From Desulfobacteraceae bacterium (GTDB taxonomy: Bacteria > Desulfobacterota > Desulfobacteria > Desulfobacterales > Desulfosarcinaceae): a DNA stretch of 64,000 nucleotides. A program made the position numbers and the translations under genes. The stretch covers positions 2,391 to 66,390 of the forward strand of contig JASFER010000001.1 in the NCBI GenBank assembly GCA_050124755.1. Reading direction: 5' to 3'. Numbering within the stretch: the first letter of the stretch is position 1; every line of letters begins with the position of its first letter. Positions 2,901 through 61,331 of the stretch are shown here, one piece after another. The notes under the pieces were generated by a model, which did no database searches, was not told the origin of the DNA, and saw nothing but the letters and a program-made list of their open reading frames with translations.

Positions 2901-4130
2901 TCAACGATCCTTTGCTTGCCACGGCGCAAACTTTAAAAGCAGCAGCATTCCCGGAACCGCGATCAGGGTGCAGAAAATGAAAAAACCGGTCCATCCCATG
3001 AATTGCGCCATAAACCCTGTCCCGGATGAGGCCACCACTCTGGGGATGCCCATCAAGCTGGTCAAGAGCGCATACTGGGTAGCTGTGAACTTTTTGTTGG
3101 TGATACTGGCCATAAAAGCGGCATAGGCAGCCGTTCCCATGCCGGAGCTGAGGTTTTCAAAGCCGATGACCACGGCCAGCATGGAGATGTTATGTCCCAT
3201 CCGGGCTAAAACGGCAAAGCCGGCTGTGGAAACGGCCTGCAACACCCCGAAGATCCACAAGCTTTTATTGATACCCAGTTTGAGCATCAGAAGTCCGCCG
3301 ATGAACCCGCCGCTGATAATGGCCCAGAAACCAACCAGTTTAACCAGGGCGCCAACTTCGGTTTTTGTGAATTGAAGGTCCACATAAAAGGGGGCCGTCA
3401 TCGAACTGGCCATGGTATCGCCGATTTTGTAAAGCAGAATGAAGGCCAGTATCCAAATCGCATTAGAGCGGCTGAAGTATTCCACAAAGGGTTCAATGAC
3501 CGCCTCTTTCATGGTTTTGGGCGTGCCGAACGGCGTGGGGGGCTCGGGGGTGAGCAAGGTGGTGATCAATCCCGGCAGCAGGCACCCGGCCATCAAGGCA
3601 TACACCCAGGCAAAAGGCATGTGATCGGCCAGAATCAGTCCCCCCCCGGCCGCCAGCAGCATGCCGATGCGGTAGCCGGCGATGTAAAGGGATGATCCCA
3701 GGCCCAGTTCTTCATCCGCCAGGTCTTCTCGACGGTAGGCATCGATGACGATGTCCTGGGAGGCGCTGAAGAGGGTGACAAAAAAAGCCGCCAGTGCCAC
3801 CAGCCATGGAGCTTTTGCCGGGTTGGTCCGGCCTAGATAGAAGATGGACAGCATGAGGGACGACTGGAAAATGAGCATCCAGCCCCGTCGCCGGCCAAAG
3901 GCGGCCAGGCTGAAGCGGTCCAGCAGGGGGGCTTGCAGAAATTTAAGCGTGTATGGCAACCCCACCAAAGCAAACAAACCGATGACGGCCAAATCCACCC
4001 CTTCTTCACGCATCCAGGTTTTGAGGACAAAGCTGGTGAGTTCCAGAGGCAGGCCGGCTGCATAGCCCATGATCAGCGCCACCGCCATGCGACGGCTGAA
4101 GAGGACTTTTATGATGGACGTTTTGGGCAT
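2901..4130 (-). CDS. ampG: AmpG-family muropeptide/MFS permease
   Basis: 409 aa and polytopic. The N-terminus ...ALIMGYAAGLPLELTSFVLKTWMREEGVDLAVIGLFALVGLPYTLKFLQAPLLDRF is a typical AmpG signature. Confidence 0.8.
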   Translation of the reverse strand: MPKTSIIKVLFSRRMAVALIMGYAAGLPLELTSFVLKTWMREEGVDLAVIGLFALVGLPYTLKFLQAPLLDRFSLAAFGRRRGWMLIFQSSLMLSIFYLGRTNPAKAPWLVALAAFFVTLFSASQDIVIDAYRREDLADEELGLGSSLYIAGYRIGMLLAAGGGLILADHMPFAWVYALMAGCLLPGLITTLLTPEPPTPFGTPKTMKEAVIEPFVEYFSRSNAIWILAFILLYKIGDTMASSMTAPFYVDLQFTKTEVGALVKLVGFWAIISGGFIGGLLMLKLGINKSLWIFGVLQAVSTAGFAVLARMGHNISMLAVVIGFENLSSGMGTAAYAAFMASITNKKFTATQYALLTSLMGIPRVVASSGTGFMAQFMGWTGFFIFCTLIAVPGMLLLLKFAPWQAKDR

Positions 4131-4137
4131 TATATTC

Positions 4138-4179
4138 GTTCATGGTTCATGGTTCAGAGTTCATGGTTCAGCGTCAGGG
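4138..4179. repeat. Six tandem heptamers (GTTCATG GTTCATG GTTCAGA GTTCATG GTTCAGC GTCAGGG) immediately upstream of the ampG start
   Basis: Read directly from the sequence. The array begins 8 nt upstream of the ampG ATG (4130, minus strand). Confidence 0.85.
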
Positions 4180-4559
4180 CCCAAGGCGTATGGAGCGTTT
4201 TTTTGTTTGAGGCTAGGACTCTAAAATTGATTATACAATTTAAATCGTTAGCGCTAACAACAAGTACCAGTTGATTAAACTTTGGAACAAGGGTTCTTTT
4301 CAAATGGTTGGTAAATGAGCGGCCCCAGAGATGGGACAACTGGGGCCGTTGATGCAAACATATTTTAATTCAGTTTAATAACCACGATAATACGAATTAT
4401 TAGCTTTTTAAGCGAGTTCTGCAGACTCTTTATCCAGTGAAAAATCCACTGCAGAACTGATATAAAGATCATCGCGACTCCTTTCTGTCTGCGGCAATAT
4501 CCTGAGTTGCCGCTTGACATAAGGCCCTCTGCTTGCTACGTGTAACAAGTTATAGAAAA

Positions 4560-4663
4560 GCTGGTCTGAAGCGTCAGGCCAGTTGCCCTTGATGGCCTTG
4601 GCCGAGGCCATTACAAGGAGTTTATTTAAGAGAGTCACCACAATTGCTGGTGACTCTTTTTTA
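4560..4663 (+). ncRNA. Candidate small RNA of about 100 nt (5' end uncertain)
   Basis: A plus-strand intrinsic terminator lies at 4631..4663, yet there is no plus-strand CDS upstream. Two further hairpins precede it: CTGGTCTGA-AGCG-TCAGGCCAG, and CCTTGATGGCC..GGCCATTACAAGG. A possible -10 box TATAGA lies at 4551..4556. The region sits between the convergent-to-divergent genes ampG and pckG. Confidence 0.35.
4631..4663 (+). terminator. Rho-independent terminator
   Basis: A perfect 10-bp stem (AGAGTCACCA / TGGTGACTCT) with a 7-nt loop is followed by TTTTTT on the plus strand. On the minus strand, 50 nt past the pckG stop, the same hairpin has no U-tract. Confidence 0.8.
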
Positions 4664-4711
4664 TGTGCAAGGCCCTCCGGCGCCTGTGGTTTCGGTTGCA
4701 ACATATGGTTT

Positions 4712-6682
4712 CTAGTTGCCAGCCGCTCGAACCTCCAGTTGCGCGGGTGAAACGATGGGGCCGACCGTATCTTTCAAAGCCATCAAACCTTTCCTTTGTT
4801 CTTTCAGAATTTCAAAAAGCTTGGCCGGCAGGTTCTCCTCCTTGCCGTAGGCTTCCAGTTGCAGATCGATGCGGGCCACGATGTTGTCCACATAGAGGGA
4901 GAACTGTTTGTTGTAAAGCTCCTGGCTGTAATTTTTGTTGATAATCTCTTTGAACAGGGTTTTGAGATCGTCGTATTTGGGAAGATATCCGATGGGGGTG
5001 TCGATGGCCTCCACATCGTTGTGCGCCCTGCGCTCCAGCCAGGCCAGCCAGACCTTTACATCGCGTTTTTCCCCCAGTAATTTTTTGTCTTTTCCGCCCC
5101 GGGCCTCGTGGGTGAGAAAATAATTGAGGCCGGCCATGACCGGTCTTTTTTCAGGGGCGATTTTGTCACTGCCGAAGAAATTGAACTGGGCGTCCATGTA
5201 ATCGCCCAAAGCACCGGGGATAAAGGGCGCATTGGCCCAGGGGGCGCGTTTGACGCCGGTGGCCCCCACTTCGGTGGCGGTGGCGGCGGATACAATGCAG
5301 GCGCCGATAACCACCCCCTGATCGGTGTCTTTGGCGGCCCATAGCGGCGGCATGGTATCGCTGTCCCGGCCGGAGTAGGTGATCACGCGGGTCTCCACCC
5401 CGGCCGGATTTTCCGCCTCTTCGGAGTAGTTTCCCAGGGACGAAGATGTCAAGGTGCAACGGGCGTTGGGATGGGACAGGGGCACGAGCTTGCCTTTTTC
5501 ATCGGTTTTTCCTTTGAACCACTCGCCTTGAAAATTGCGTCCTTTTTCAGGCGGGGTTTCGCCGTTGCCGACCCAATGGGGCTTGCCCTCGTCGTCGATG
5601 AGGACATTGGACCAAATCACTTCGGTACCGGGTTCCCGCAGGCACTTCATCAGCAAAGGATCACCTTCCTGGTTGACGTCTTCCACGATACCGAAGATTC
5701 CGTTTTCCGGGTTGATGGAACGAACGGTGCCGTCCTGAGCGATCCACATCTGGGCCAGGTCGTCTCCCACAAAGTGGTTGCCGGCCATGGCCGTGGTGGT
5801 TTTGCCGCAGCCGCTGGGGGCGGCGCCGGTTACCCAGGTGACCCTGCCGTTGGGGCCGTCGATGCCGGTAATGAACATGTGCTCGGACAGCTCAAAGGCC
5901 CGTTTTTCGTAAACCGAGCGGTCCACGCTGAATCGGTGGTTGCCCTTTTTCAGCAGCAAGGTGTTGCCGGCATAGGTGCAGTTGAAACTGTAGGTGGTGC
6001 GCCAGGCCCGGTCCATCAATACCCTGGCATTGGGCAGGTCTTCGGGGCGATTGAGACCTTCGCTGTGGATGTTGGTGTAGCAATGACCGGCCCGTTCCAC
6101 CTCTTTCTCGAAATCGGCGTAGATGTTGCGGTAGAGCAATTCGGCGCTGTGGGCGACATAGGCGGAACTGGTAATTTCGATGGCCGGATTGGCCACTTGG
6201 GCGCCCACCGGACCTCGGGAATAAAAACCCACAATCATTATCATGCCGGCCATGATGCCCCCCATGCCTTTTTGAACGGTCTCAAGGGCTTGCTTTCGGG
6301 ACATGCGCAGGGCCAACGAACTCACCAGTTCATCATCGTTGGCGATATAATACGTACGATCGATGATGCGGCCCTGCTCTTCTTTGAGATCATAGTGAAT
6401 GGTGTGCCCTTCCATGGCAAGTGGGGTTTCCTCATTTTTTTGGATGGCCAAATCACGCACGAACTGTTTGTCCTGATCCGAGCCGGTGTTGACGTAAACG
6501 CTGTCCGGTTGGCACATCACAACCGCATTGGCAATGATTCGCAATAAATGCCGGTCTTTAATGAATTGAATGCGTTGAAAATGTTCAGCGTCCGTTTTTT
6601 CTTTGAGCAGTGGTAAAGCAGCATCGGCCGTCCTGACCTTTCCGATCTCTTCAACGATGTGGATTCCTTGTCCAAATTTCAT
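4712..6682 (-). CDS. pckG: Phosphoenolpyruvate carboxykinase, GTP-type
   Basis: 656 aa. It carries the kinase-1a P-loop GAAPSGCGKTT, and its overall length and architecture fit GTP-PEPCK. An AAGGAG ribosome-binding site lies upstream. Confidence 0.75.
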   Translation of the reverse strand: MKFGQGIHIVEEIGKVRTADAALPLLKEKTDAEHFQRIQFIKDRHLLRIIANAVVMCQPDSVYVNTGSDQDKQFVRDLAIQKNEETPLAMEGHTIHYDLKEEQGRIIDRTYYIANDDELVSSLALRMSRKQALETVQKGMGGIMAGMIMIVGFYSRGPVGAQVANPAIEITSSAYVAHSAELLYRNIYADFEKEVERAGHCYTNIHSEGLNRPEDLPNARVLMDRAWRTTYSFNCTYAGNTLLLKKGNHRFSVDRSVYEKRAFELSEHMFITGIDGPNGRVTWVTGAAPSGCGKTTTAMAGNHFVGDDLAQMWIAQDGTVRSINPENGIFGIVEDVNQEGDPLLMKCLREPGTEVIWSNVLIDDEGKPHWVGNGETPPEKGRNFQGEWFKGKTDEKGKLVPLSHPNARCTLTSSSLGNYSEEAENPAGVETRVITYSGRDSDTMPPLWAAKDTDQGVVIGACIVSAATATEVGATGVKRAPWANAPFIPGALGDYMDAQFNFFGSDKIAPEKRPVMAGLNYFLTHEARGGKDKKLLGEKRDVKVWLAWLERRAHNDVEAIDTPIGYLPKYDDLKTLFKEIINKNYSQELYNKQFSLYVDNIVARIDLQLEAYGKEENLPAKLFEILKEQRKGLMALKDTVGPIVSPAQLEVRAAGN

Positions 6683-6763
6683 TTACGACTCCTTTATGAA
6701 AATCACTGTTAAACAGGGTGCGGTTCATCGAATTTACGGCAAATAGGATTGGATTTGATGGGA

Positions 6764-7426
6764 TCAGCCATCATTTGCGCCTCCCATGCACCCCAAGGGT
6801 TCGGTGGGCGGCGTGTGGCGTTCAAGCCACACCATGACCTTTTCGAATTCTGAGCAGAATTCGAAAAGGGCTTTTCCGCGGTGGCTCACCCGGCTTTTTT
6901 CTTCCATGGTCAGTTCCGCAAACGTTTTGTTTAATTCAGGATAGAAAAAGATGGGATCATAACCGAATCCATTGGTGCCGGCCGGTTGACGGGCAATTAA
7001 GCCTTCGCATCGGGCTTCATAGGTAAGGGCCGGTCCGGTGGGGACAGCCAGTGAGATGACACATTCAAAACGGGCCTTTCGATTTTCCGTATCGCCAAGC
7101 GCATCCAGTAATTTTTGGCAACGTTGCTCGTCTGTCGCATCGTCACCCGCATAGCGCGCCGAAAGAACCCCTGGAGCGCCATCCAGCGCATCAACCACCA
7201 ATCCGGAATCATCCGCCAAAGCCGGAAATCCAAGGTAACGTGCTGTTAAACTTGCCTTTTTGTAGGCATTGGCCTCGAACGTCTCCCCATCTTCAACGAT
7301 GGGCGGAATGGGGCCGAAGTCATCGAGGTTGCGGATATCGACGGGGTAATCTTTCAGCAACCCTATGATTTCATTTGTTTTCCCATGATTATGGGTCGCC
7401 AGGACAAGGATGGTCCGTTGTGGCAT
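6764..7426 (-). CDS. rdgB: Non-canonical purine NTP (dITP/XTP) pyrophosphatase, RdgB/HAM1 family
   Basis: Motifs ILVLATHNHGKTNE, LADDSGL and NGFGYDPIF are present. Confidence 0.85.
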   Translation of the reverse strand: MPQRTILVLATHNHGKTNEIIGLLKDYPVDIRNLDDFGPIPPIVEDGETFEANAYKKASLTARYLGFPALADDSGLVVDALDGAPGVLSARYAGDDATDEQRCQKLLDALGDTENRKARFECVISLAVPTGPALTYEARCEGLIARQPAGTNGFGYDPIFFYPELNKTFAELTMEEKSRVSHRGKALFEFCSEFEKVMVWLERHTPPTEPLGCMGGANDG

Positions 7427-7532
7427 GCCTACCTCTATGTATACGTTTATTTACGTTCTTATAAATAGGTTTGTGACGAAGGCTTATAAAGGATGGACAA
7501 AAAGTTGTAAAGACGAATTTGTGTTTTTTGTC

Positions 7533-7652
7533 GGGCGGATGGTGAAATGCGGTGGCCTCCAAAATGGCATCCGGCAATCCCCACAGACCCGGAAGATAAG
7601 CGCCGATGCCTGCGTGGGTCGTCCCGATGACGTTGACTTCCGCTTCCACCAT
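7533..7652 (-). pseudogene. Remnant of an HDOD-domain gene (about 40 codons survive)
   Basis: VEAEVNVIGTTHAGIGAYLPGLWGLPDAILEATAFHHPPD aligns by eye at 29/40 identities with VEAEEKVIGTNHSCIGAYLLGLWGLPEAILDATAFHHSHH near the C-terminus of the 404-aa HDOD protein at 46304..47518. Homology ends exactly where repeat copy A begins. Confidence 0.7.
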
Positions 7653-7668
7653 GGAAATGACCTTTTTA

Positions 7669-7840
7669 TTGCATCATTAAAACCTGGTCCTCAGGGTCAG
7701 GTCTGAGACCATTGGCTTTGCCTTCAAAGCAGGGTTCGGAGGGTATAACGTTATTGAACGATGAACATCGAACGTCCAACATCGAACGTCCAATGATGAG
7801 ATCGCTTCGCTCCGCCATCTTATCAATCGGCAGAATACCT
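7669..7840 (+). repeat. Palindromic intergenic element, copy A (right arm missing)
   Basis: About 170 nt are near-identical to copy B. The shared parts are the left flank with its terminator-like hairpin, the left arm TGAACATCGAACGTCCAACATCGAACGTCCAA (7762..7793), and the core GATGAGATCGCTTCGCTCCGCCATCTTATCAATCGGCAGAATACC. Confidence 0.8.
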
Positions 7841-7952
7841 TTCTCGATGGGCCGTATGTAACTGCTTGCTTTTGCGGGGAACATGCATGAAAATGGTGCA
7901 TAACTGATAACAAGTTATAAGATATCGGGTATTTTTTCAATAGGACAACGCA

Positions 7953-8564
7953 TTGCTTGTAGCCGGCTTAACAGGTGGAATTGCATCAGGAAAATCAACT
8001 GTTTCCGCATTTTTTCAAAAAGCGGGGGCGCAAATTATCGATGCGGATATCATCGCCCGCCAGGTGGCGGCGCCGGGATTGCCTGCATGGAAAGCCATTC
8101 AATCAGCTTTCGGAGATGATGTGATCCATTCCGACGGCACCATAGATCGATCCTCGCTCGGGGAACTGGTTTTCAACGATAGGCGGCTGCGCCGGCAATT
8201 GGAAGGGATCATTCATCCCCATGTGCGATTGCAAATCAATCGGGAATTGTTAAGGTTGAGGAGAACCACACCCCATGCCGTGGTTATTCAAGACATCCCC
8301 CTATTGCTGGAGACGGGTATGACCGAAGGATTGGCGGAGATCATCGTTGTATATACCCCTCCTGAGCTTCAACTCAAGCGGTTGATGCTCAGAGACGGTA
8401 TTGACTTGAACGCCGCCAGAGCGCGTTTGGACGCCCAAATGCCCATGGCGGAAAAATGCCGCCGCGCCACCATCGTGATAGACAACCGCGGCGCGCTTTC
8501 AGCGACCCGACAGCAGACTTTAAAGATATACGCGGACCTTGCTCGAAGAGCGCGTCATTCGTAA
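7953..8564 (+). CDS. coaE: Dephospho-CoA kinase
   Basis: The P-loop GLTGGIASGKST is at the N-terminus. The start codon is apparently TTG. Confidence 0.8.
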   Translation: MLVAGLTGGIASGKSTVSAFFQKAGAQIIDADIIARQVAAPGLPAWKAIQSAFGDDVIHSDGTIDRSSLGELVFNDRRLRRQLEGIIHPHVRLQINRELLRLRRTTPHAVVIQDIPLLLETGMTEGLAEIIVVYTPPELQLKRLMLRDGIDLNAARARLDAQMPMAEKCRRATIVIDNRGALSATRQQTLKIYADLARRARHS

Positions 8565-8593
8565 GATTTTAAAACTTAATACTCAATTTCAAA

Positions 8594-8622
8594 TTGACAG
8601 AAGCCATTTGTTTCTCTATAGA
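8594..8622 (+). promoter_or_regulatory. Sigma70-type promoter candidate for the HD-GYP gene
   Basis: TTGACA (8594..8599), a 17-nt spacer, then TATAGA (8617..8622). It lies about 85 nt upstream of the ATG at 8707. Confidence 0.45.
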
Positions 8623-8706
8623 AGAAAGCTGTTTAAGATTGGCATAGGTGTTCGATGCTGTTCTAACAACTAGTTGTTGACCCGCTCAATCGAGAGGAAA
8701 CTCCCC

Positions 8707-9336
8707 ATGGCTCAGGCTGCAGAGGCGTTGACGGTTCCCACCCCCACTTTTGGCAACGATACACGCGCTCTATTGCTCATGGCATCTGCGTTGGGACTGA
8801 AAGATAAGTATACCCATGCCCATGCCCACCGTGTGGCGGCCTATTCTAAAAGATTGGCCATTCGCGCAGGTCTTCCCATGCAGGAAGTGATGCAGGTGAC
8901 CATGGGTGGAATGCTGCACGACGTAGGCAAACTGGCGTTGAGTGATCGGATTTTCAGCAACCAAAAGGCGGCGCTGTCTCAAGAGATGCTTTGGGAGGTG
9001 CGCCATCATCCCATCATTGGTGCTGCGCTGCTGAAAAAAGTCGCCTGCGGCAAGACCATATCCGATGCCGTGCTCTTTCATCATGAGCGCATGGATGGCC
9101 GGGGCTACCCTTTTGGCCTTAAAGGGAATGCCATTCCACTGAGCGCCAAAATCGTCAGTATTGCCGATTGCTTCGACGCCATGACCACAGACCGCCCTTA
9201 TCAAAAGCGAAAAGAATGCAACGTGGCTATTTCAATGTTGGACGAGGCCTCGGGAACGAGTTTCTGCCAAGATCTAGTTGCTTTGTTTATCGACGAGATT
9301 CGATATAAGGGTATGGTTCATCATTTTATACCCTGA
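8707..9336 (+). CDS. Stand-alone HD-GYP domain phosphodiesterase (c-di-GMP specific family)
   Basis: Motifs HDVGKLAL and HHERMDGRGYPFGLKG are present. The ATG at 8707 follows GAGGA, although the ORF is open from 8674. The 3' end overlaps convergent panC by 11 nt. Confidence 0.8.
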   Translation: MAQAAEALTVPTPTFGNDTRALLLMASALGLKDKYTHAHAHRVAAYSKRLAIRAGLPMQEVMQVTMGGMLHDVGKLALSDRIFSNQKAALSQEMLWEVRHHPIIGAALLKKVACGKTISDAVLFHHERMDGRGYPFGLKGNAIPLSAKIVSIADCFDAMTTDRPYQKRKECNVAISMLDEASGTSFCQDLVALFIDEIRYKGMVHHFIP

Positions 9337-10174
9337 TTCTAATATTATCGATCAATCGCGTGCCGCTCAGTTTTACGGCTATAGCGATCAGGATTTCGCC
9401 ATCCAACCAAGAGACGTCTGACAGGGTTTGCGCATCCACAATGGCGATGTAATCGATGACGGCGTCCGGCACTGCACGAATGTTTGCTTCGATGTGCCGG
9501 AGAATCGCTTCAGCTTGGCGTTCACCTTTACTGATCATATCCCGTGCTTTAAAGAGCGATTGGGAGAGCACCACTGCATCGGCTCGATGTTGAGGAGACA
9601 AGTAGGTGTTGCGTGAACTCATGGCCAAACCGTCGGCTTCTCGAACGATAGGGCATACAACCACTTCCAGGTCGAAGTCCAGGTCTTTGACCATTTGTTG
9701 GATGATGGCTACTTGCTGGGCATCTTTTTGACCGAAATAGGCCCTGTCCGGAGACACCAAATGAAATAGTTTTGTGACGATGGTGGTGACACCGCGAAAA
9801 TGGACGGGCCTTGATCTTCCGCACAACACCTGGCTCATGGGGCCTTCAACGTTCACATAAGTGGTATAACCTTCCGGATAAAGCTGCTCAATGCTTGGAA
9901 AATAGGCCAAGTCCACATTCTCCGCGGCCATCAGCGCTTTGTCTCGCGCGAAATCCCGGGGATAGGCATCAAGATCTTCATTGGGGCCGAATTGGGTGGG
10001 ATTGACAAAAATGCTCACCACAACCACGTCATTGTCCTGCCGGGCTTGGCGCATCAATGACAGGTGACCCTCGTGAAGGTATCCCATGGTGGGTACAAAT
10101 CCAATGGACTGCCCTTTCCGGCGGGCTTTTTTAACGGCCTTGCGCAGTTCACTATTTGCTTCAATGATCTCCAT
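9326..10174 (-). CDS. panC: Pantoate--beta-alanine ligase
   Basis: The motif PTMGYLHEGHLSL and the overall PanC pattern are present. Confidence 0.9.
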   Translation of the reverse strand: MEIIEANSELRKAVKKARRKGQSIGFVPTMGYLHEGHLSLMRQARQDNDVVVVSIFVNPTQFGPNEDLDAYPRDFARDKALMAAENVDLAYFPSIEQLYPEGYTTYVNVEGPMSQVLCGRSRPVHFRGVTTIVTKLFHLVSPDRAYFGQKDAQQVAIIQQMVKDLDFDLEVVVCPIVREADGLAMSSRNTYLSPQHRADAVVLSQSLFKARDMISKGERQAEAILRHIEANIRAVPDAVIDYIAIVDAQTLSDVSWLDGEILIAIAVKLSGTRLIDNIRIRV

Positions 10175-10223
10175 TCAACCAAGCTCCATTCTCTTAGACG
10201 GCAATTAAACCTAATTTAGGGGG

Positions 10224-11060
10224 TTAACGCAATTTTGCCAGCAATTCTTCATCCATGTGGAACGTGTGCTCTTCGGCAGGAAAGGTACTTTTGCGGACTT
10301 CATCGATATATTGTTTAACAGCGGAAACAGTTGCGTCGCCGCCGGAGGTGTACGTTTTGACAAACTTGGGTCTCATCTGGCGAAACATACCCAGCAAATC
10401 CTGAATCACCAATACCTGACCGTCGCACTGGGCACCGGCACCGATACCAATGGTAGGGATATCGAGTTTTTCAGTAATGATGCGGGCCAGACCGTCGGGG
10501 ACGCACTCCAGCACGATACCAAAAACACCGGCATCCTGCAGCAATAAGGCATCATCGATAATTTTACGGGCGGTTTCCAGATCTTTGCCCTGCAGCCTGA
10601 AACCTCCCATGGCGTTCACAGATTGAGGGGTTAGCCCTAGATGACCCAGAACGGGGATCTGCGCTTTGAGAATAGCTCTGGTTTTATCGATAATCGATTG
10701 GCCGCCCTCTAATTTGACGGCTTGTGCGCCGCCCTCTTGCACCAAGCGGCCGGCATTGCGCACGGCCTCTTCCGTGCTGACATGATAGGAGAGAAAAGGC
10801 ATGTCTCCGATCAAAAAAGCGTTAGAAGTACCACGGGCCACTGCTTTGGTGTGGTGGATCATGTCATCCATGGTTACCTTGAGCGTATTCTCGTATCCCA
10901 ACATCACCATGCCCAGCGAGTCACCCACCAACAGGCAATCCACACCTGCTTCATCCAGCAGTGAGGCGGTTGTGTAATCGTAAGCGGTCAGCATGGTGAT
11001 GCGTTCGCCCTTTTCTTTGGCGGATTTGAAGGATTGGATCGTAAATTGGGTTCCAGCCAT
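10224..11060 (-). CDS. panB: 3-methyl-2-oxobutanoate hydroxymethyltransferase
   Basis: Typical PanB sequence: MLTAYDY, LVGDSLGMV, KLEGG. Confidence 0.9.
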   Translation of the reverse strand: MAGTQFTIQSFKSAKEKGERITMLTAYDYTTASLLDEAGVDCLLVGDSLGMVMLGYENTLKVTMDDMIHHTKAVARGTSNAFLIGDMPFLSYHVSTEEAVRNAGRLVQEGGAQAVKLEGGQSIIDKTRAILKAQIPVLGHLGLTPQSVNAMGGFRLQGKDLETARKIIDDALLLQDAGVFGIVLECVPDGLARIITEKLDIPTIGIGAGAQCDGQVLVIQDLLGMFRQMRPKFVKTYTSGGDATVSAVKQYIDEVRKSTFPAEEHTFHMDEELLAKLR

Positions 11061-11074
11061 GATAGCATTCCTTT

Positions 11075-11944
11075 CTATTTCTTTTTCAACAATTGTTTGA
11101 TCGCAGCCGCCTGATCCGTTGCTTGCAGCGTTTCTTTAGTGGCTAGATCAAGGGTTTTCAACCCTAAAAACACATAGATCGATTTAATATCGTCCAAGCC
11201 CTGCCTGTTTAGGGCTTCCAAGTGCTTTTCAATAGTACCCCTATCGCCACGGGCGATGGGGCCGGTGAGGGCGCGGGCCGGCCCCAATTGGGCAATGTTG
11301 GCCAGTGTGCCGTCAATGAGCGGACGCATGGCCTGAAAGCCTTCCTGGGGATCGATGCCGGCGTTTTCTAAAGCACAGATGCCGCTCGCCATAAGGGTCA
11401 CCAAATAGTTGGATAAAACACAGGCAGACAGATGGTAAAGGCTTTTGTATTCAGCGGATAGGGTAAAATATGGATTGCCGATTTGGGAGAGTAGCTCCAA
11501 TATGGGTTCCAGACCGGTTTTATCTCCTTCGATGCTGAAGTAGGTATTGGGCAGATCGGCCAAAGCTTTTTCTTCATCGGCAAAGGCCTGCAGCGGATGC
11601 AGGCTGAAGACTTTCGCCCCTCGATGCCGGGCTTCGGCTAATATGCTTGAGCTATGTGACCCGCTCATGTGCCCCACCAGATGCCGGGGTCCGATGCAAT
11701 TTTGCCGGCATAGCTCACGGCACATGTCGGCGATTTGATCGTCCCGCGTGGTGATGAGTAAGATGTCGCTTTGGGTTGCCACCGCAGCGCCGTTTGGAAA
11801 GGATCGGCTTTGGGTGCTGCCGGCGGCATGGGCCACTTTTTCCGGATGGCGGTCGAAGTATCCGCTGATAAATAGGCCTTTGCTGTGCAGATAGCGGCCA
11901 AAAGCCGTGGCCACCTTTCCGGCACCGATGAAACCAATGCGCAT
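11075..11944 (-). CDS. Rossmann-fold / DUF2520-type oxidoreductase, a candidate PanG-type ketopantoate reductase
   Basis: MRIGFIGAGKVATAFG (GxGxxG) sits at the predicted start (M37 of the track ORF). The C-terminal region LTGPIARGD is typical of DUF2520. The gene is immediately upstream of panB-panC on the same strand. Confidence 0.6.
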   Translation of the reverse strand: MRIGFIGAGKVATAFGRYLHSKGLFISGYFDRHPEKVAHAAGSTQSRSFPNGAAVATQSDILLITTRDDQIADMCRELCRQNCIGPRHLVGHMSGSHSSSILAEARHRGAKVFSLHPLQAFADEEKALADLPNTYFSIEGDKTGLEPILELLSQIGNPYFTLSAEYKSLYHLSACVLSNYLVTLMASGICALENAGIDPQEGFQAMRPLIDGTLANIAQLGPARALTGPIARGDRGTIEKHLEALNRQGLDDIKSIYVFLGLKTLDLATKETLQATDQAAAIKQLLKKK

Positions 11945-56364: not shown

Positions 56365-56667
56365 TCAGGGGATCGATGCAGGTCCGCCATTCACATGGAA
56401 CCAAGGGCCATGAATGCGCGAATGTCTGCATCGTGGGCATTTACTGGGCGTTGAGAGGCGTTTGCGGTCTTTAAAGGTATAACCGCAGCTTTCACAATAG
56501 GCTGGTTGGACCTGCCAAAGCATTCCACGGGCCACAACAGATTTGGCCACATGGGGCAAATGGGCGACCACCTCCTTTTCACTGATTCTCAGTGCTTGGG
56601 ATAGGTCCCGCCGATCCATTGGCGCATTTTGCAATACGTCAATCATTTTTTGGCGAAGTGTATTCAA
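56365..56667 (-). CDS. Small HTH + zinc-ribbon transcriptional regulator (tentative)
   Basis: 100 aa. The winged-helix-like N-terminus (RRDLSQALRISEKEVVAHL) is followed by CESC...CPRC. Confidence 0.45.
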   Translation of the reverse strand: MNTLRQKMIDVLQNAPMDRRDLSQALRISEKEVVAHLPHVAKSVVARGMLWQVQPAYCESCGYTFKDRKRLSTPSKCPRCRHSRIHGPWFHVNGGPASIP

Positions 56668-56692
56668 ATGGCCCCTTTAATTATTGATCAAC

Positions 56693-57154
56693 TTAGAGAT
56701 TGGTTCCCAACCACAAAATAACCCCTTTGATGCAAGGGCAAAGGGTGTGAATGCAATCTTCATAGGCCGAAAACGGGCCGCCGTACGGATCAGCGATATC
56801 ATGTGCCGGTGTTTGCATGTTGAACTCACTGATCATGATCGGTTTTTTGTGTTTCCAGACCAGCAGACCGTTGACTTTGCGAACATGTGCGGCCTCCATG
56901 GTTAGGATCAAATCGGACTCCCGTGCGATCGCGCTGGTAACTTGCCGCGCTCTGTGATGGTGGATATCGATGCCGATCCTATCCATCGCCTTCAACGCAT
57001 GGGATTCGGCATGATGGCCGTGCAGTGCGTGGGTGCCGGCGGAACTCACTTCGACGCGCGACTTTAGATCAACCGGCAAATAGTGGTTCAAGAGGCCGGC
57101 GGCCATGGGGCTGCGGCAGATGTTGCCGGTGCATACCATCAGAACTTTAAACAT
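56693..57154 (-). CDS. Low-molecular-weight protein tyrosine phosphatase
   Basis: The CX5R(S) loop VCTGNICRSPMA is at the N-terminus, and the DP loop is DIADPYG. Confidence 0.85.
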   Translation of the reverse strand: MFKVLMVCTGNICRSPMAAGLLNHYLPVDLKSRVEVSSAGTHALHGHHAESHALKAMDRIGIDIHHHRARQVTSAIARESDLILTMEAAHVRKVNGLLVWKHKKPIMISEFNMQTPAHDIADPYGGPFSAYEDCIHTLCPCIKGVILWLGTNL

Positions 57155-57193: not shown

Positions 57194-58045
57194 TTATAGC
57201 ATTGTTGCCGGTTTTTTGCCAAACAAGGCTATCTCTTTCATCCGATGGGCCTGCCATCGAATGACGGATTGCCATCTCATCAATTTGGCCAACAGCGATC
57301 TTTGAAAACCCCGATGATGTTTTTCCATCTTTTTTAGCAACATGAACGCCTCACCGTTGATCCAGCCTGGAAGACCTCCTGAAAGCTCGTAAATTTTGCG
57401 GACCTGATCGCCTGAAAACGGGTTCTTTCGGATGATGCCGGCGACTCTGAGGCGATGTTGCAGATAGTCGGCGGTTTGTTTCTCTGTCAGGGGCACCATA
57501 TAGATTTTGTCGATGACGGACATCGGTGGTAGCCAACGGGCGATTTCGGCAAAACGTTTGCGCATATCAGGCTCGGCAAATAATACAATGCTTTTGAATT
57601 TCGGTTGCTTATCTGGCCTGAAAGCTGACTGCAGCAGTTTTTTCAGCTCGTTGGCAGTGAGTTGATGGGCATCGTCGATGATGATTGACGGCGGATGGTT
57701 TTTTTGGGTGCGGTAGACCACGCGATTGGTTAAATTGCGCCAGCGGCTCCGACAATCTTTGCTTTCGGGTGATAGCTTGATTCGGCACGCCTGCCAAGCG
57801 TTACCGGCGCTGGAGATGAATTCGTTCATTAAGGTGGTTTTGCCGCTGCCCCTTTCACCAATCACCACGATGACCAAGCTGCGGCCTCCCACCATGTTGT
57901 TGAGGATGGACAAACGCTGTTTGATGAGCGGCGATTGGAAAAAGAATCGATTGCTCTCTTTAGGACCGGGACTGGCTTGATCTAAACCAAGGATGGCCGG
58001 TAGAGGCACGGATAGACGTTTAATGCTTTGCGCATTTGTCGGCAT
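57194..58045 (-). CDS. ExeA-like AAA ATPase (AAA_22 type)
   Basis: Walker A GERGSGKTT and Walker B IIIDDAH are present. The ORF is open to 58123, and the start is uncertain (M1 or M27). Confidence 0.65.
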   Translation of the reverse strand: MPTNAQSIKRLSVPLPAILGLDQASPGPKESNRFFFQSPLIKQRLSILNNMVGGRSLVIVVIGERGSGKTTLMNEFISSAGNAWQACRIKLSPESKDCRSRWRNLTNRVVYRTQKNHPPSIIIDDAHQLTANELKKLLQSAFRPDKQPKFKSIVLFAEPDMRKRFAEIARWLPPMSVIDKIYMVPLTEKQTADYLQHRLRVAGIIRKNPFSGDQVRKIYELSGGLPGWINGEAFMLLKKMEKHHRGFQRSLLAKLMRWQSVIRWQAHRMKEIALFGKKPATML

Positions 58046-58223
58046 GTGTGACTGTCCTGGTGGTGCAATATTTGTCGGCCACTGCCTGCATGTCAAATTT
58101 GTGACGCCTACATTTCCATACAACTGAATATTTTTGTAGACGTTTTGTTGCAGCCTTCATGGTGAAAAACCCGTTTAACCTGCTTTTCACTAATAGATGG
58201 CCAATTCTTACACATAATTCTGC

Positions 58224-58239
58224 AGCAAGCTTCGTGCCA
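58224..58239 (-). promoter_or_regulatory. Sigma54 (-24/-12) promoter
   Basis: The minus strand reads TGGCACGAAGCTTGCT, which equals TGGCAC-N5-TTGCT with consensus spacing. It points at the ExeA-like / LMW-PTP / HTH gene string. Confidence 0.6.
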
Positions 58240-58496
58240 CTAAATATATTGCCAGGCGGTGTGTAAAATAGATCCGTATCAACGGCTTGAATTTGATCGG
58301 TGCTTGATCTTTTTGGTGAGCTCCTCTATATACAATGGGCACCCATTGCAGCTGATCATCATTCCATGGAATGCAATTAAATAAGGACCCCATCTGGTGG
58401 GATTCCGATTGACATATACCGAGTGGCATGACGAGCCAATGCAGATGACCCACCCACTCACCATATTTGTGTAAATGCTGTTATACGGAGTAATCT

Positions 58497-59642
58497 ATGG
58501 ACGACTACCGCATTTTATTTGTCGATGACGATAAAGATATTCTGATGATGGTTGAGCAATACCTGCAAATGCAGGGCTATGATATCACGACGGTGAACAG
58601 CGGTTTAAAGGCACTGGACCTGATCCGAGAGGAGGACGTCCACATTATTTTTACAGATTACAAAATGCCCGAATTTAATGGGTTGGAATTGCTGGCGGCA
58701 GTTAAGCAATATAGCCCTGACATCGAGGTGATCATCGTCACGGGTTACGGCTCTATGGAATCAGCGGTTCAGGCAATGAAATTCGGTTGTTATGATTATT
58801 TGCAGAAACCATTTAAACTGGATCACCTTAAACTGATCATTGACCGCATCATCGAGGAAAAGAAAGTCGAAGATAAGGCGGCACTGCTGCGCAAGCGTGC
58901 CCGGGGCCGCTATAAATTCGAGTCGTTGATCGGTATCAGCGCTCCCATGCAGCAAGTCTATGAGATGATTGAGACGGTGGTTCAGCAGAATCCCATGGTC
59001 TTGATTCAGGGTGAGAGCGGAACCGGTAAAGAATTGGTGGCCCGCACCATTCATGACTTGAGTGAACGCAATGAAATGCCCTTCGTACCGGTAAATTGCG
59101 GGAGTATCAGCGAAGGTGTGCCCGAGAAAGAGATGATTGGCCATGTTACGGCACTGATCAAAAAGGTGGACGGCGGCACGATCTACCTGGATGAGATTGC
59201 CGAGTTGACGCCCAGCCTGAGGCTCAGCATCCTTCAAGCCATTGAGATCGAGCAAAGAAAAAAAGGTATCAGTGCCAGGGTTGTGGCCGCCACCGGCAAA
59301 GAGTTAAAGGAGGTCATCGACAGTGGCGTAATGAAAAAAGACCTGTTCGATCTGCTCAATGCGGTTGTTGTGACCATGCCGCCGCTGAGAGAGCGGCGCG
59401 AGGACATTTGCTTACTGATTCATCATTTTATTTATCAGATTTGCACCCGGCAGAATAAGCGTATCATCAGTGTGTCACCTGAAGCACTGGATATTTTGAT
59501 GCGATATCACTGGCCCGGCAACCTGATTCAGCTTCAAAACGTTATTGAACGCGCACTGGCATTGGGCGTTGATGAACTTATCGGGCCGGACGACCTGCCG
59601 GCGGAAATTCAGACATTCAGCGAGATATCCAAAATCAGCTAG
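58497..59642 (+). CDS. NtrC-like REC + degenerate sigma54-interaction AAA+ domain, with no GAFTGA loop and no C-terminal HTH
   Basis: The REC has FVDDD and IIFTDYKMPEFNG. Walker A GESGTGKE, Walker B YLDEI, RVVAAT and PPLRERREDI are present. The segment between CGSISEG and GGTIYLDEI is about 11 aa too short and lacks GAFTGA. The protein ends about 30 aa after the AAA+ lid. Confidence 0.8.
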   Translation: MDDYRILFVDDDKDILMMVEQYLQMQGYDITTVNSGLKALDLIREEDVHIIFTDYKMPEFNGLELLAAVKQYSPDIEVIIVTGYGSMESAVQAMKFGCYDYLQKPFKLDHLKLIIDRIIEEKKVEDKAALLRKRARGRYKFESLIGISAPMQQVYEMIETVVQQNPMVLIQGESGTGKELVARTIHDLSERNEMPFVPVNCGSISEGVPEKEMIGHVTALIKKVDGGTIYLDEIAELTPSLRLSILQAIEIEQRKKGISARVVAATGKELKEVIDSGVMKKDLFDLLNAVVVTMPPLRERREDICLLIHHFIYQICTRQNKRIISVSPEALDILMRYHWPGNLIQLQNVIERALALGVDELIGPDDLPAEIQTFSEISKIS

Positions 59643-59650
59643 GGCTAAAC

Positions 59651-61285
59651 ATGCCCGATATCCTGCTCATACAACCCCCCATTCAAGACTTTTATCTTAC
59701 CGCCAAACGGACACTTCCTTACGGACTTGCCAGCATCGCCGCATCGCTGCGGGAAGCCGGGTTTACGGTGGGCATTTGCGATGGTCTCGCCACCACCAAA
59801 AGCCGTATCATACCGTGGCCCCGGCAGATGGAATTTCTGCAACCCTATTATGGCCAACCCGATGCATCACCCTTCGGGCTGTTCCATCATTTTCGCCATT
59901 TTGGCTACAGCCTTGATCACATTGCCCGTCAAGCCAAGGCATCGGGGGCCTTCCTCATTGGTATTTCATCACTTTTCAGCGCATACAGCGATATGGCGCT
60001 GGCCACCGCGGCGGCTGTCAAGAGGGTTCGTCCCGAGGTGCCCATCGTATTGGGCGGGCATCATCCAACGGCCATGCCCCGTGCCGTCATGCGGGATGCG
60101 GCGGTGGATTTCATTTTACGTGGAGATGGTGAGGTGGGACTTCCCGCACTCGCCCGGGCCTTGTCGAAAAAATTACCGCTGGATAATATACCGGGATTGG
60201 TGCGCAGAACGGAAGCCGGCCGTTTGGCCGTTGCGCCGCCGGCTATGGTGGAAAAATTGGACGATTTGCCTTTGCCGGCTTTTGATCTGATTGGATGGCG
60301 TCACTATCAACGTTCCGGCTTAGGCAGTATGGCACTTACCGCAACCCGCGGCTGTCCCATGCGGTGCACCTATTGTGCGGTCAATGCCGCCACCTATCAT
60401 GGTTTCCGACAACGTAGCATTTTTTCTGTGATGGCCGAGATTAAAGCGGCGTTTGACCTGATGCCCATGGGGTTTATCGATTTCGAAGACGAACACATCT
60501 GCGCCGATAAGCAGTGGGCGCTGGCGTTGATGACCCAAATCGCCCATGAACTCGGCCGCTGGCGTCCGGAATTAAGAGCGATGAACGGCCTGTACGCCCC
60601 CGATTTGGATGCCCAGTTGCTTCAAAGCATGCAAAAGGCGGGTTTTAAAACCCTGAATCTGGCCTTGATCACTACTGCAGCCTCGCAACTCAAACGTTTT
60701 GGGCGACCGGACATCACCAGGGACTTCGATCGTGTGCTTTACCTCGCCCGTCATAAGGGCATGCGCTGTGTGGCCTACCTCATCGTCGCGGGTCCGGAGC
60801 AAGATCCACATCAATCGCTTCGAGATCTATGCCACTTGGCCCAGCGCCGGGTCCTGGCCGGTGTATCGGTGTTCTATCCTGCTCCCGGAAGCGCTGATTT
60901 TGATTGGTGCCGGCGTTACAACATGTTGCCTGCGGATTTTACCCTGATGCGTTCCACGGCTTTACCTTTGGCCCACCGGACCGATCGTACGCAAACGGTG
61001 ACGCTGCTGCGTTTGGGGCGGGTCCTCAATTTTATGAAACATTTGCTGGACTTGGGGCACCCATTGCCCATGCCGTCCAAACCGCCGCGATGGATTGATC
61101 CAAAGGCGGATCGTCTTTCCATGGGAAAGCAATTGCTGGCTGCTTTTTTAGAAAATGGTGTCATTTGGGGGGTGGATAACGACGGAAATCTTTATCCACA
61201 CACCATAGATCATTCCCTGACACGCCGGTTTCTGAGTGAATGCAAGAAAATCACTTTAAGAGGAACAATACATCTGCATTGCTGA
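59651..61285 (+). CDS. B12-binding-domain radical SAM protein
   Basis: The N-terminus is a Rossmann-like, B12-binding-type domain (ILLIQPP...YGLASIAASLREAGF). The CxxxCxxC cluster motif is TATRGCPMRCTYCAV. An 8-nt gap separates it from the upstream gene. Confidence 0.8.
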   Translation: MPDILLIQPPIQDFYLTAKRTLPYGLASIAASLREAGFTVGICDGLATTKSRIIPWPRQMEFLQPYYGQPDASPFGLFHHFRHFGYSLDHIARQAKASGAFLIGISSLFSAYSDMALATAAAVKRVRPEVPIVLGGHHPTAMPRAVMRDAAVDFILRGDGEVGLPALARALSKKLPLDNIPGLVRRTEAGRLAVAPPAMVEKLDDLPLPAFDLIGWRHYQRSGLGSMALTATRGCPMRCTYCAVNAATYHGFRQRSIFSVMAEIKAAFDLMPMGFIDFEDEHICADKQWALALMTQIAHELGRWRPELRAMNGLYAPDLDAQLLQSMQKAGFKTLNLALITTAASQLKRFGRPDITRDFDRVLYLARHKGMRCVAYLIVAGPEQDPHQSLRDLCHLAQRRVLAGVSVFYPAPGSADFDWCRRYNMLPADFTLMRSTALPLAHRTDRTQTVTLLRLGRVLNFMKHLLDLGHPLPMPSKPPRWIDPKADRLSMGKQLLAAFLENGVIWGVDNDGNLYPHTIDHSLTRRFLSECKKITLRGTIHLHC

Positions 61286-61299
61286 AATGGCTGTAAAAA

Positions 61300-61331
61300 C
61301 GTAGGGCCGGCCTCCGCGCCGGCCGGTTTTA
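61300..61331 (+). terminator. REP-like GC hairpin (copy 2) acting as the terminator of the radical SAM gene
   Basis: CGTAGGGCCGGCCTCCGCGCCGGCC has a 7-bp stem GGCCGGC/GCCGGCC followed by GGTTTTA. It is the inverted match (24/25) of 15426..15450. Confidence 0.65.

Follow-up and report, generated by a model that had tools for sequence, protein, structure and literature searches.

Gene Organization and Domain Architecture

The gene considered here encodes a protein of 381 residues and lies at positions 58497 to 59642 of a 64,000-nucleotide stretch of DNA from a member of the Desulfobacteraceae (GenBank assembly GCA_050124755.1, contig JASFER010000001.1, positions 2,391 to 66,390 of the forward strand); this whole stretch is referred to as the window. 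The open reading frame (ORF) is genuine, with a ribosome-binding site, GGAG, 7 nucleotides 5′ of its ATG, and its product consists of a receiver domain (REC), an AAA+ domain of the type present in the bacterial enhancer-binding proteins (EBPs) that activate σ54-dependent transcription, and an AAA+ lid. The features of the gene and of the protein are as follows.

58497-59642, + strand: gene for the REC and degenerate AAA+ protein, 381 residues, stop codon included (ORF list, Pfam)
58512-58841, + strand: receiver domain, residues 6-115, with Asp10, Asp11, the acceptor Asp54, Thr82, and Lys104 (Pfam, family conservation)
58842-58925, + strand: helical linker between REC and AAA+, residues 116-143, in a position like that in NtrC1 and DctD (the alignment with NtrC1, 1ny5, spans the linker)
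59010-59033, + strand: Walker A, GESGTGKE, residues 172-179 (Lys178 invariant in 148 of 148 family members)
59142-59153, + strand: site of an 11-residue deletion that removes the GAFTGA (L1) loop, His216-Ala219 (alignments, structure model)
59178-59195, + strand: Walker B, TIYLDE, residues 228-233 (Asp232 in 145 and Glu233 in 144 of 148 family members)
59253-59267, + strand: site of a 7-residue deletion in the pre-sensor-I (L2) insertion, Gln253-Gly257 (length control, alignment)
59334-59354, + strand: KKDLFDL in place of REDLYYR, with Lys280 at the position of NtrC1 Arg293 and Leu286 at that of NtrC1 Arg299, the arginine finger (alignments)
59526-59528, + strand: Ile344 at the sensor II position (NtrC1 Arg357), where GNVREL is replaced by GNLIQL (alignments)
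59592-59639, + strand: conserved C-terminal tail of 16 residues, DLPAEIQTFSEISKIS, in place of a linker and Fis-type helix-turn-helix (HTH) (alignments)

Pfam assigns residues 6-115 to Response_reg (99.5 bits), 144-292 to Sigma54_activat (PF00158), and 298-373 to AAA_lid_14. The PF00158 match, at 109 bits against a cut-off of 20.2, has only 149 residues to spread over the 168 positions of the profile. HTH_8 was not found in the Pfam scan, the chain stopping 8 residues past the lid match, and the NCBIfam models AtoC, NtrX, NtrC, and ZraR are matched only to about position 390 of about 450, with scores that are all far under their cut-offs. An initial annotation, made from the sequence alone, had described an NtrC-like protein with an intact REC domain and no Fis-type DNA-binding domain, and both observations hold: the catalytic residues of the receiver, Asp10, Asp11, Asp54, Thr82, and Lys104, are invariant in 147 to 148 of 148 members of the family described below. 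MAFFT places the end of the tail DLPAEIQTFSEISKIS opposite the point where the HTH recognition helix ends in canonical paralogues, and the tail may therefore be a remnant of the lost domain. In an AlphaFold model of the protein (predicted local distance difference test (pLDDT) 72, predicted template modeling score (pTM) 0.53) both the REC and the AAA+ folds are kept, and linker helices are placed, with low confidence, at residues 108-123 and 127-136; the best matches to this fold in the PDB are NtrC1, NtrX, NtrC4, LuxO, VpsR, and FleQ.

Losses from the AAA+ Module

That two internal segments of the AAA+ domain are shortened, as initially proposed, was confirmed by alignment with Aquifex aeolicus NtrC1 and by a control within the source genome. 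In a phmmer alignment with NtrC1 (1ny5), 11 gap positions in the query stand opposite EKGAFTGAVSSKEGFFEL, the segment with the GAFTGA (L1) loop, and 7 further gap positions stand opposite the pre-sensor-I insertion, FYRLGG. For the control, distances between motifs were taken in every EBP of the source genome (6.4 Mb in 484 contigs, 92.8% complete), which carries a single rpoN gene together with about 66 canonical EBPs, whose PF00158 scores are 195 to 254 bits, a range from which the 109 bits of the present protein make it an outlier. Walker A and Walker B are 55 residues apart in this protein versus 65-67 in 49 of 51 EBPs, and Walker B and sensor I are 27 residues apart versus 34 in 50 of 50; the AAA+ match is followed by no residues, versus 43-91 in the other EBPs. 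Alignment to the Sigma54_activat profile likewise bears out the deletions and recovers no loop equivalent to GAFTGA. A hidden counterpart of this loop is ruled out by the profile and PDB alignments, by the length control, and by the structure model, in which a single unbroken helix, residues 210-224, runs through the would-be site of the L1 insertion.

The losses extend to catalytic residues. In the numbering of NtrC1 as printed, which agrees with Phe216 in GAFTGA and Glu239 in Walker B, Arg293, Arg299, and Arg357 correspond to Lys280, Leu286, and Ile344 of the present protein, and the Asn of sensor I is replaced by Gly267. When 148 sequences of the short family were compared with 57 canonical EBPs of the source genome, the sensor II position was occupied by Ile in all 148 of the former and by Arg in all 57 of the latter; Arg was present at the position of the arginine finger, Arg299, in 4 of 148 versus 57 of 57, and at that of Arg293 in 7 of 148 versus 56 of 57. 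The initial view that the core AAA+ motifs are retained is therefore correct for Walker A and Walker B but not for the arginine finger region, which has Leu286 and, at sensor II, Ile344; of the segments that had been taken for this region, RVVAAT is in fact the strand of sensor I, and with PPLRER the lid begins.

In NtrC1, Arg299 (Arg168 of PspF) touches the γ-phosphate in trans, and L1 and L2 touch σ54 and promoter DNA (PMC7175178); GAFTGA mutants are generally unable to activate (PMC7175178). The module looks competent, as far as its residues allow one to judge, for phosphorylation and for nucleotide binding but not for the ATP hydrolysis of an EBP ring, which is implausible because, across the family, hydrophobic residues stand where the trans arginine finger and the arginine of sensor II would be. 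An earlier suggestion of a phosphorylation-gated ATPase is thus not sustained, although nucleotide binding is still plausible. The same annotation had concluded that the protein is not a classical activator, and this we endorse: with L1, L2, and the DNA-binding domain all missing, and the loss conserved family-wide, the predicted protein cannot serve as a classical σ54 activator.

A Conserved Family of Short Proteins

Whether the losses represent decay or a functional subfamily was a question raised by the initial annotation, and a search for orthologues answers it in favor of the latter. More than 120 clusters are 75-100% identical to the protein of the window and nearly all are exactly 381 residues long; those with a named source are labeled Desulfobacteraceae, Desulfosarcinaceae, or Desulfatitalea, and Desulfatitalea tepidiphila and D. 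alkaliphila are among the carriers in culture. A second branch, of 388-390 residues, is equally rich in clusters, one of them from an Olavius symbiont. The short family as a whole therefore comprises hundreds of clusters at 90% identity, of fixed length (381 or 388-390 residues) and in two branches; a library clustered at 50% identity holds only a handful of them (P0121, P0123, P0126, and P0130), and the next relatives in that library are full-length canonical EBPs with GAFTGA and HTH, at 45-47% identity. A short member is encoded by 26 of 251 genomes sampled across the order, in nine GTDB families, and by one additional genome, from a different order, among about 380 others of the phylum.

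In a maximum-likelihood tree the short family is monophyletic with a support of 100/100, and it splits into the subclade of the window (family f1 and the genome G055) and a sister subclade with all others. The 11-residue L1 deletion, the absence of the HTH, and the tail DLPxEIxTFGEISK are common to all 29 rows of the family alignment, which represent the 26 genome loci together with P0121, P0123, and P0126. L2 is deleted only in the subclade of the window, whereas in the other branch its length is kept and its sequence is scrambled (0.18 identity). Identity between the branches is best conserved in REC (0.63), the Walker A part (0.57), the lid (0.57), and the tail (0.63), and is lowest in what were once the L1, L2, and arginine finger regions (0.18-0.34). 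This distribution indicates that the family is under purifying selection, and because the loss is conserved throughout a monophyletic family, the family represents a conserved functional subfamily and not a strain-specific pseudogene.

One protein of the representative library, P0179 (401 residues), keeps GAFTGA, yet has Ile at sensor II and Phe at the arginine finger position; its L2 is scrambled, its HTH is missing, and it ends, like the short family, in a tail, DLPHEISTFGEIFH. P0179 may be an intermediate, its placement in the tree being unsure because of a long branch; if it is, the catalytic arginines and the HTH would have been lost ahead of L1.

A Tandem with a Complete, Stand-alone EBP

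Immediately 5′ of the short gene in the sister subclade is a second EBP-like gene (here termed ADJ) on the same strand. The gap between the two is −1 to 147 nucleotides in the 12 loci with an intact partner; by coordinates the tandem is present in four further genomes (G211, G230, G109, and G030), giving 16 genomes altogether, and it recurs on two public contigs from metagenomes or metagenome-assembled genomes, where the genes were called independently and have the expected Pfam matches. At one locus (L036, genome G249) the partner, at 10913-11608, is cut to 231 residues and is separated from the short gene by 417 nucleotides, which may represent a broken partner next to an intact short gene.

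ADJ proteins are about 330-345 residues long and complete as EBPs: Sigma54_activat is matched at 167 of its 168 positions (239 bits), and GAFTGA, EFERVGG, FREDLFYRL, GNVREL, the lid, and HTH_8 are all present. A regulatory domain is lacking, since the AAA+ domain begins at about residue 12. Added together, the domains of ADJ and of the short protein amount to precisely one full set for an NtrC-type regulator and, in addition, a dead AAA+ module. ADJ proteins form a clade of their own whose branching order is the same as that of the short-gene tree, as expected for a unit that is inherited jointly. The initial annotation had raised the possibility that the short protein is a partner of true EBPs, and this operon-like tandem supports it, in the sister subclade only.

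Related arrangements were noted at other loci. At L074 (genome G039, 3961-6953) and L075 (genome G118, about 7496-10289), the gene next after that of a canonical sister paralogue with REC, AAA+, and HTH codes for a stand-alone EBP in the same group, so that a module of two EBPs may be older than the degeneration of one of them. At L083 (7187-11558) and L084 (7273-11702), and also at L039, L040, and L036, all in one branch, the tandem pair is followed by a gene for OmpA on the opposite strand, and 3′ of this gene are genes for MarR, DsrE2-like, TusA, and DsrM/DsrK-like proteins, a sulfur-trafficking cluster that could be a target of the pair. A search of the tandem-pair loci for a shared σ54 promoter gave only an inconsistent element, TGGCGACCTTTTTGCA, inside a dsrE-like gene at some loci.

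The Locus in the Window

The surroundings of the short gene in the window contain two predicted promoters and two flanking genes, as follows.

58304-58332, + strand: putative σ70-like promoter of the short gene, TTGATC, 17 nucleotides, TATATA (inferred from conservation)
58224-58239, − strand: consensus σ54 −24/−12 promoter, TGGCACGAAGCTTGCT, pointing away from the short gene (the only exact match in the window)
57194-58123, − strand: divergent gene for an ExeA-like P-loop ATPase, 3′ of the σ54 promoter (Pfam AAA_16 and AAA_22; TIGR03015 far under its cut-off)
59651-61285, + strand: gene for a B12-binding radical SAM protein, starting 8 nucleotides past the stop codon of the short gene (Pfam B12-binding and Radical_SAM)

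The putative σ70-like promoter is the only strongly conserved intergenic block across seven family loci. A GG-N10-GC element with at most 2 mismatches is present at the same place and on the same strand as the predicted σ54 promoter in 6 of 6 loci of the family of the window that were checked, and in the window it faces the genes for the ExeA-like ATPase, a low molecular weight phosphotyrosine phosphatase, and a PF0610-like protein. The short gene thus stands where one would usually expect the gene of an EBP cognate to this promoter; an ancestor of the short protein may have controlled the promoter, or the present protein may modulate the EBP that does. No convincing enhancer-like inverted repeat was found in the intergenic region, nor did the long leader of the short gene give a match in Rfam. 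No histidine kinase gene lies next to the short gene in any locus examined, so that the receiver appears to be an orphan; the source genome encodes many kinases.

The radical SAM gene is followed by a terminator-like hairpin at 61305-61324. Its product appears to be a widespread enzyme, with an orthologue in 150 of the 251 genomes of the order versus about 26 with a short gene, and has no function that can be assigned from curated families, the best NCBIfam scores being 87-92 bits against cut-offs of 575-750. The adjacency of the short and radical SAM genes is accordingly treated as synteny rather than as a functional link. The ExeA-like gene is absent at loci L003 and L050. On the other side of it, at 56365-57154 (− strand), are the genes for the low molecular weight phosphotyrosine phosphatase and for the PF0610-like protein, which has an HTH and a zinc ribbon, and these are adjoined by genes for a GldG-type ABC transporter (ABC_tran, ABC2_membrane, ABC_transp_aux, and DUF4340); the synteny is kept in loci of the family.

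Other relatives of EBPs are encoded elsewhere in the source genome. Contig C35 (4674-5798) carries a stand-alone EBP, termed SOLO, with an AAA+ domain containing GAFTGA, HTH_8, and no regulatory domain, within a conserved flagellar cluster in the order FlaF, FlbT, flagellin, SOLO, an ORF of 232 residues, an EBP with an atypical receiver, FlgB/C, FliE, FliF, FliG, and FliH; SOLO is probably a flagellar master regulator. Three more degenerate EBP-like ORFs, on contigs C16 (25475-25939), C58 (4640-4813), and C99 (10975-11475), lack either Walker B or GAFTGA and score 40-139 bits with PF00158, so that the genome holds several non-canonical relatives of EBPs.

Proposed Mechanism and Alternatives

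The reading that we favor, although only tentatively and at a little short of an even chance, is that the protein is a phosphorylation-controlled pseudo-EBP, derived from an NtrC1-type activator, that regulates a true EBP in trans. It retains a fully competent receiver, a nucleotide pocket formed by Walker A and Walker B, the lid, and the conserved tail. Its dead AAA+ module would dock on, or join, the ring formed by a true EBP without a sensory domain, so that one polypeptide would provide the input half and another the output half of an NtrC-type regulator. In NtrC1, the unphosphorylated receiver keeps the AAA+ domains in an off-state dimer, and the region of REC and linker is similar in the present protein. 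By analogy, the unphosphorylated pseudo-EBP would be in such an off-state, and phosphorylation would release the dead AAA+ module, which could then enter or cap the ring of the partner; the phosphorylation state of the receiver would in this way decide whether the partner makes a productive ring. Known EBPs without sensory domains are run by separate proteins (PspA, HrpV, FleN, and NifL), which fits the need of the partner for such a regulator.

The sign of the regulation we infer to be, with somewhat greater probability, that of an anti-activator or attenuator rather than that of an obligate co-activator. An incorporated subunit should silence the neighboring ATP site, because it has no arginine finger or L1 to donate, and attenuation is therefore favored. 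However, EBP rings in which some subunits are L1-defective assemble readily in vitro and stay partly active, and engineered PspF rings in which half of the L1 loops are disabled have about 55% of their activity left (PMC3467059), so that a structural co-activator role resembling that in HrpR/HrpS is a somewhat less probable alternative. It is conceivable, although on balance we lean against it, that a receiver joined to a dead AAA+ module that inserts in or caps the ring of a sensor-less activator constitutes an undescribed class of two-component output, and that in the lineage of the window the module has left its first partner and been re-used on another client.

Several observations weigh against the proposal of a pseudo-EBP acting on a true EBP. 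Adjacency is the sole link between the short protein and a true EBP, and confidence in the structure model is only moderate (pLDDT 72, pTM 0.53). Neither the window nor the rest of its subclade (family f1 and G055) has an adjacent, co-oriented EBP partner, and, because the root of the family falls between the two subclades, the pairing could have arisen later instead of being ancestral. The sole relative of ADJ in the source genome is the flagellar-cluster EBP on C35, which the tree puts in the separate SOLO clade. Genome G029, of the same genus and 97% complete, has neither SOLO nor FliF, although its short gene is preserved, at 87% identity; the closest canonical paralogue, too, is missing from the genus of the window.

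Two candidates for a universal partner in the family of the window were thus considered and rejected: SOLO, since G029 keeps the short gene without it, and the closest canonical paralogue (P0124-like), which is missing from G000, G029, and G055. It is thus not possible to point to a universal partner for the window. The client of the short protein in this lineage could be the activator of the conserved divergent σ54 promoter.

Of the rival explanations, the strongest, although we regard it as unlikely, is that the protein binds nucleotide under the control of a phospho-switch and acts on a client outside σ54 transcription, with the dead AAA+ domain as a regulated docking platform; candidate clients are the radical SAM protein, the module of ExeA-like ATPase and phosphotyrosine phosphatase, or a protein encoded elsewhere in the genome. 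The gap of 8 nucleotides between the short and radical SAM genes and the terminator that they share would be in keeping with this, as would the absence of an adjacent EBP in the lineage of the window; the order of short gene then radical SAM gene is kept in the family of the window and G055, and the radical SAM gene is 2.7-19 kb from the short gene in G021, G244, G130, and G175. Yet the occurrence counts given above (150 of 251 genomes versus about 26) imply that the radical SAM protein does not require the short protein, and the gap between their genes varies from 8 to about 1000 nucleotides. Furthermore, G108 has a short gene without the radical SAM, ExeA-like ATPase, or phosphatase genes, the ExeA-like gene is absent at L003, and such neighbors are missing beside most members of the family. 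The initial annotation had singled out the radical SAM protein and the ExeA-like ATPase as candidate interactors, and a specific link to either finds no support in these distributions, both genes being missing at some family loci.

A phosphate sink, that is, a decoy receiver that drains or buffers phosphoryl groups from a kinase shared with a canonical NtrC-type paralogue and in which the AAA+ domain is kept for folding or dimerization only, appears quite improbable. The invariance of the receiver residues, the position of REC as the most conserved domain, the lack of an adjacent kinase gene in any examined locus, and the presence of the canonical sister paralogue in several genomes would all suit such a role. 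The rest of the protein does not behave as ballast, however: its Walker A is invariant, the conservation of the lid and the tail equals that of REC, and the fixation of Ile at sensor II in 148 of 148 sequences looks like selection rather than drift. In addition, the canonical paralogue is missing from the genus of the window.

It is very improbable that the protein is a σ54 activator that makes an unconventional contact, working from solution on the divergent promoter in the manner of FlgR and CtcC, which have no DNA-binding domain. The consensus σ54 promoter in the divergent intergenic region is conserved in family loci and is placed where the gene of a cognate EBP is expected, but L1 with its GAFTGA and L2 are deleted, the arginine finger and sensor II arginine are gone, and the EBPs without a DNA-binding domain that are known to us retain GAFTGA. 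The missing L1 and L2 are moreover the contacts to σ54 and DNA, and GAFTGA mutants are generally inactive (PMC7175178). Finally, a decaying pseudogene or strain-specific remnant, which deletions and lost catalytic residues would resemble if the sequence were taken alone, is counted as refuted by an intact frame, a length that is fixed in several hundred clusters with 75-100% identity within each branch, and a monophyletic distribution across nine GTDB families and one genome of another order with many invariant positions.

Relationship to Other Regulators

The known proteins that the short protein most resembles are response regulator EBPs of the NtrC1/DctD/NtrC4 type, its best match being A. 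aeolicus NtrC1 (1ny5, 248 bits), which is also the best fold match. The two share the order REC, helical linker, AAA+, and lid, the receiver residues, and Walker A and Walker B; they differ in that the short protein has no L1 GAFTGA, L2, or HTH, has Lys, Leu, and Ile in place of Arg293, Arg299, and Arg357, and gives about half the canonical score with PF00158. FlgR of Helicobacter pylori and CtcC of Chlamydia also consist of REC and AAA+ without HTH, but they keep GAFTGA and the catalytic residues and activate σ54-dependent transcription from solution, whereas the short protein has no GAFTGA and has its catalytic arginines replaced.

Pairs of AAA+ paralogues that are encoded side by side and thought to share a ring include HrpR/HrpS of Pseudomonas syringae, FleQ/FleT of Cereibacter sphaeroides, and RedR1/RedR2. 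To our knowledge both partners in each pair keep GAFTGA and the catalytic arginines; here, in contrast, the sole sensory domain belongs to a partner that is catalytically dead, and the two are adjacent in the sister subclade but not in the window. FleT is without regulatory and DNA-binding domains (PMC7175178), and HrpR and HrpS are strictly co-operative (PMC3105312). The systems PspA-PspF, HrpV-HrpS, FleN-FleQ, and NifL-NifA correspond to the proposed role in that a separately encoded protein controls an EBP that stands alone or is constitutively competent. However, PspA, HrpV, FleN, and NifL are neither AAA+ paralogues of their targets nor response regulators, whereas the short protein would be a degenerate form of the EBP fold joined to a receiver.

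Among EBP-type AAA+ proteins, TyrR, NtrX, VpsR, and the NtrC proteins of Caulobacter and Rhodobacter are without a functional GAFTGA and do not activate σ54-dependent transcription (PMC6158489, PMC12421884), and NtrX (5m7n) is among the top sequence and fold matches of the short protein. These proteins keep their DNA-binding domains and act as σ70-dependent activators or repressors, whereas the short protein has no DNA-binding domain. A survey of 37 EBPs of Desulfovibrio vulgaris includes none like it (PMC4641369). In a literature search of incomplete coverage, we found no description of a receiver-fused EBP module without L1, L2, arginine finger, sensor II, and HTH, nor of the pairing of such a module with a stand-alone EBP.

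Database labels on proteins of the short family are uniformly "DNA-binding NtrC family response regulator" or "sigma-54-dependent transcriptional regulator." Regulon predictions that count such a protein as an activator are wrong, because it has no HTH with which to bind DNA and cannot contact σ54. The family is abundant in sulfate reducers of marine sediments, whose genomes have dozens of EBPs. If the reading of a regulator split across two polypeptides is true, the short proteins would represent a natural experiment on the tolerance of an EBP ring for dead subunits, so far probed only with engineered mixtures of PspF, and would provide a new route by which a phosphorelay controls a σ54 activator, through a pseudo-ATPase paralogue acting in trans.

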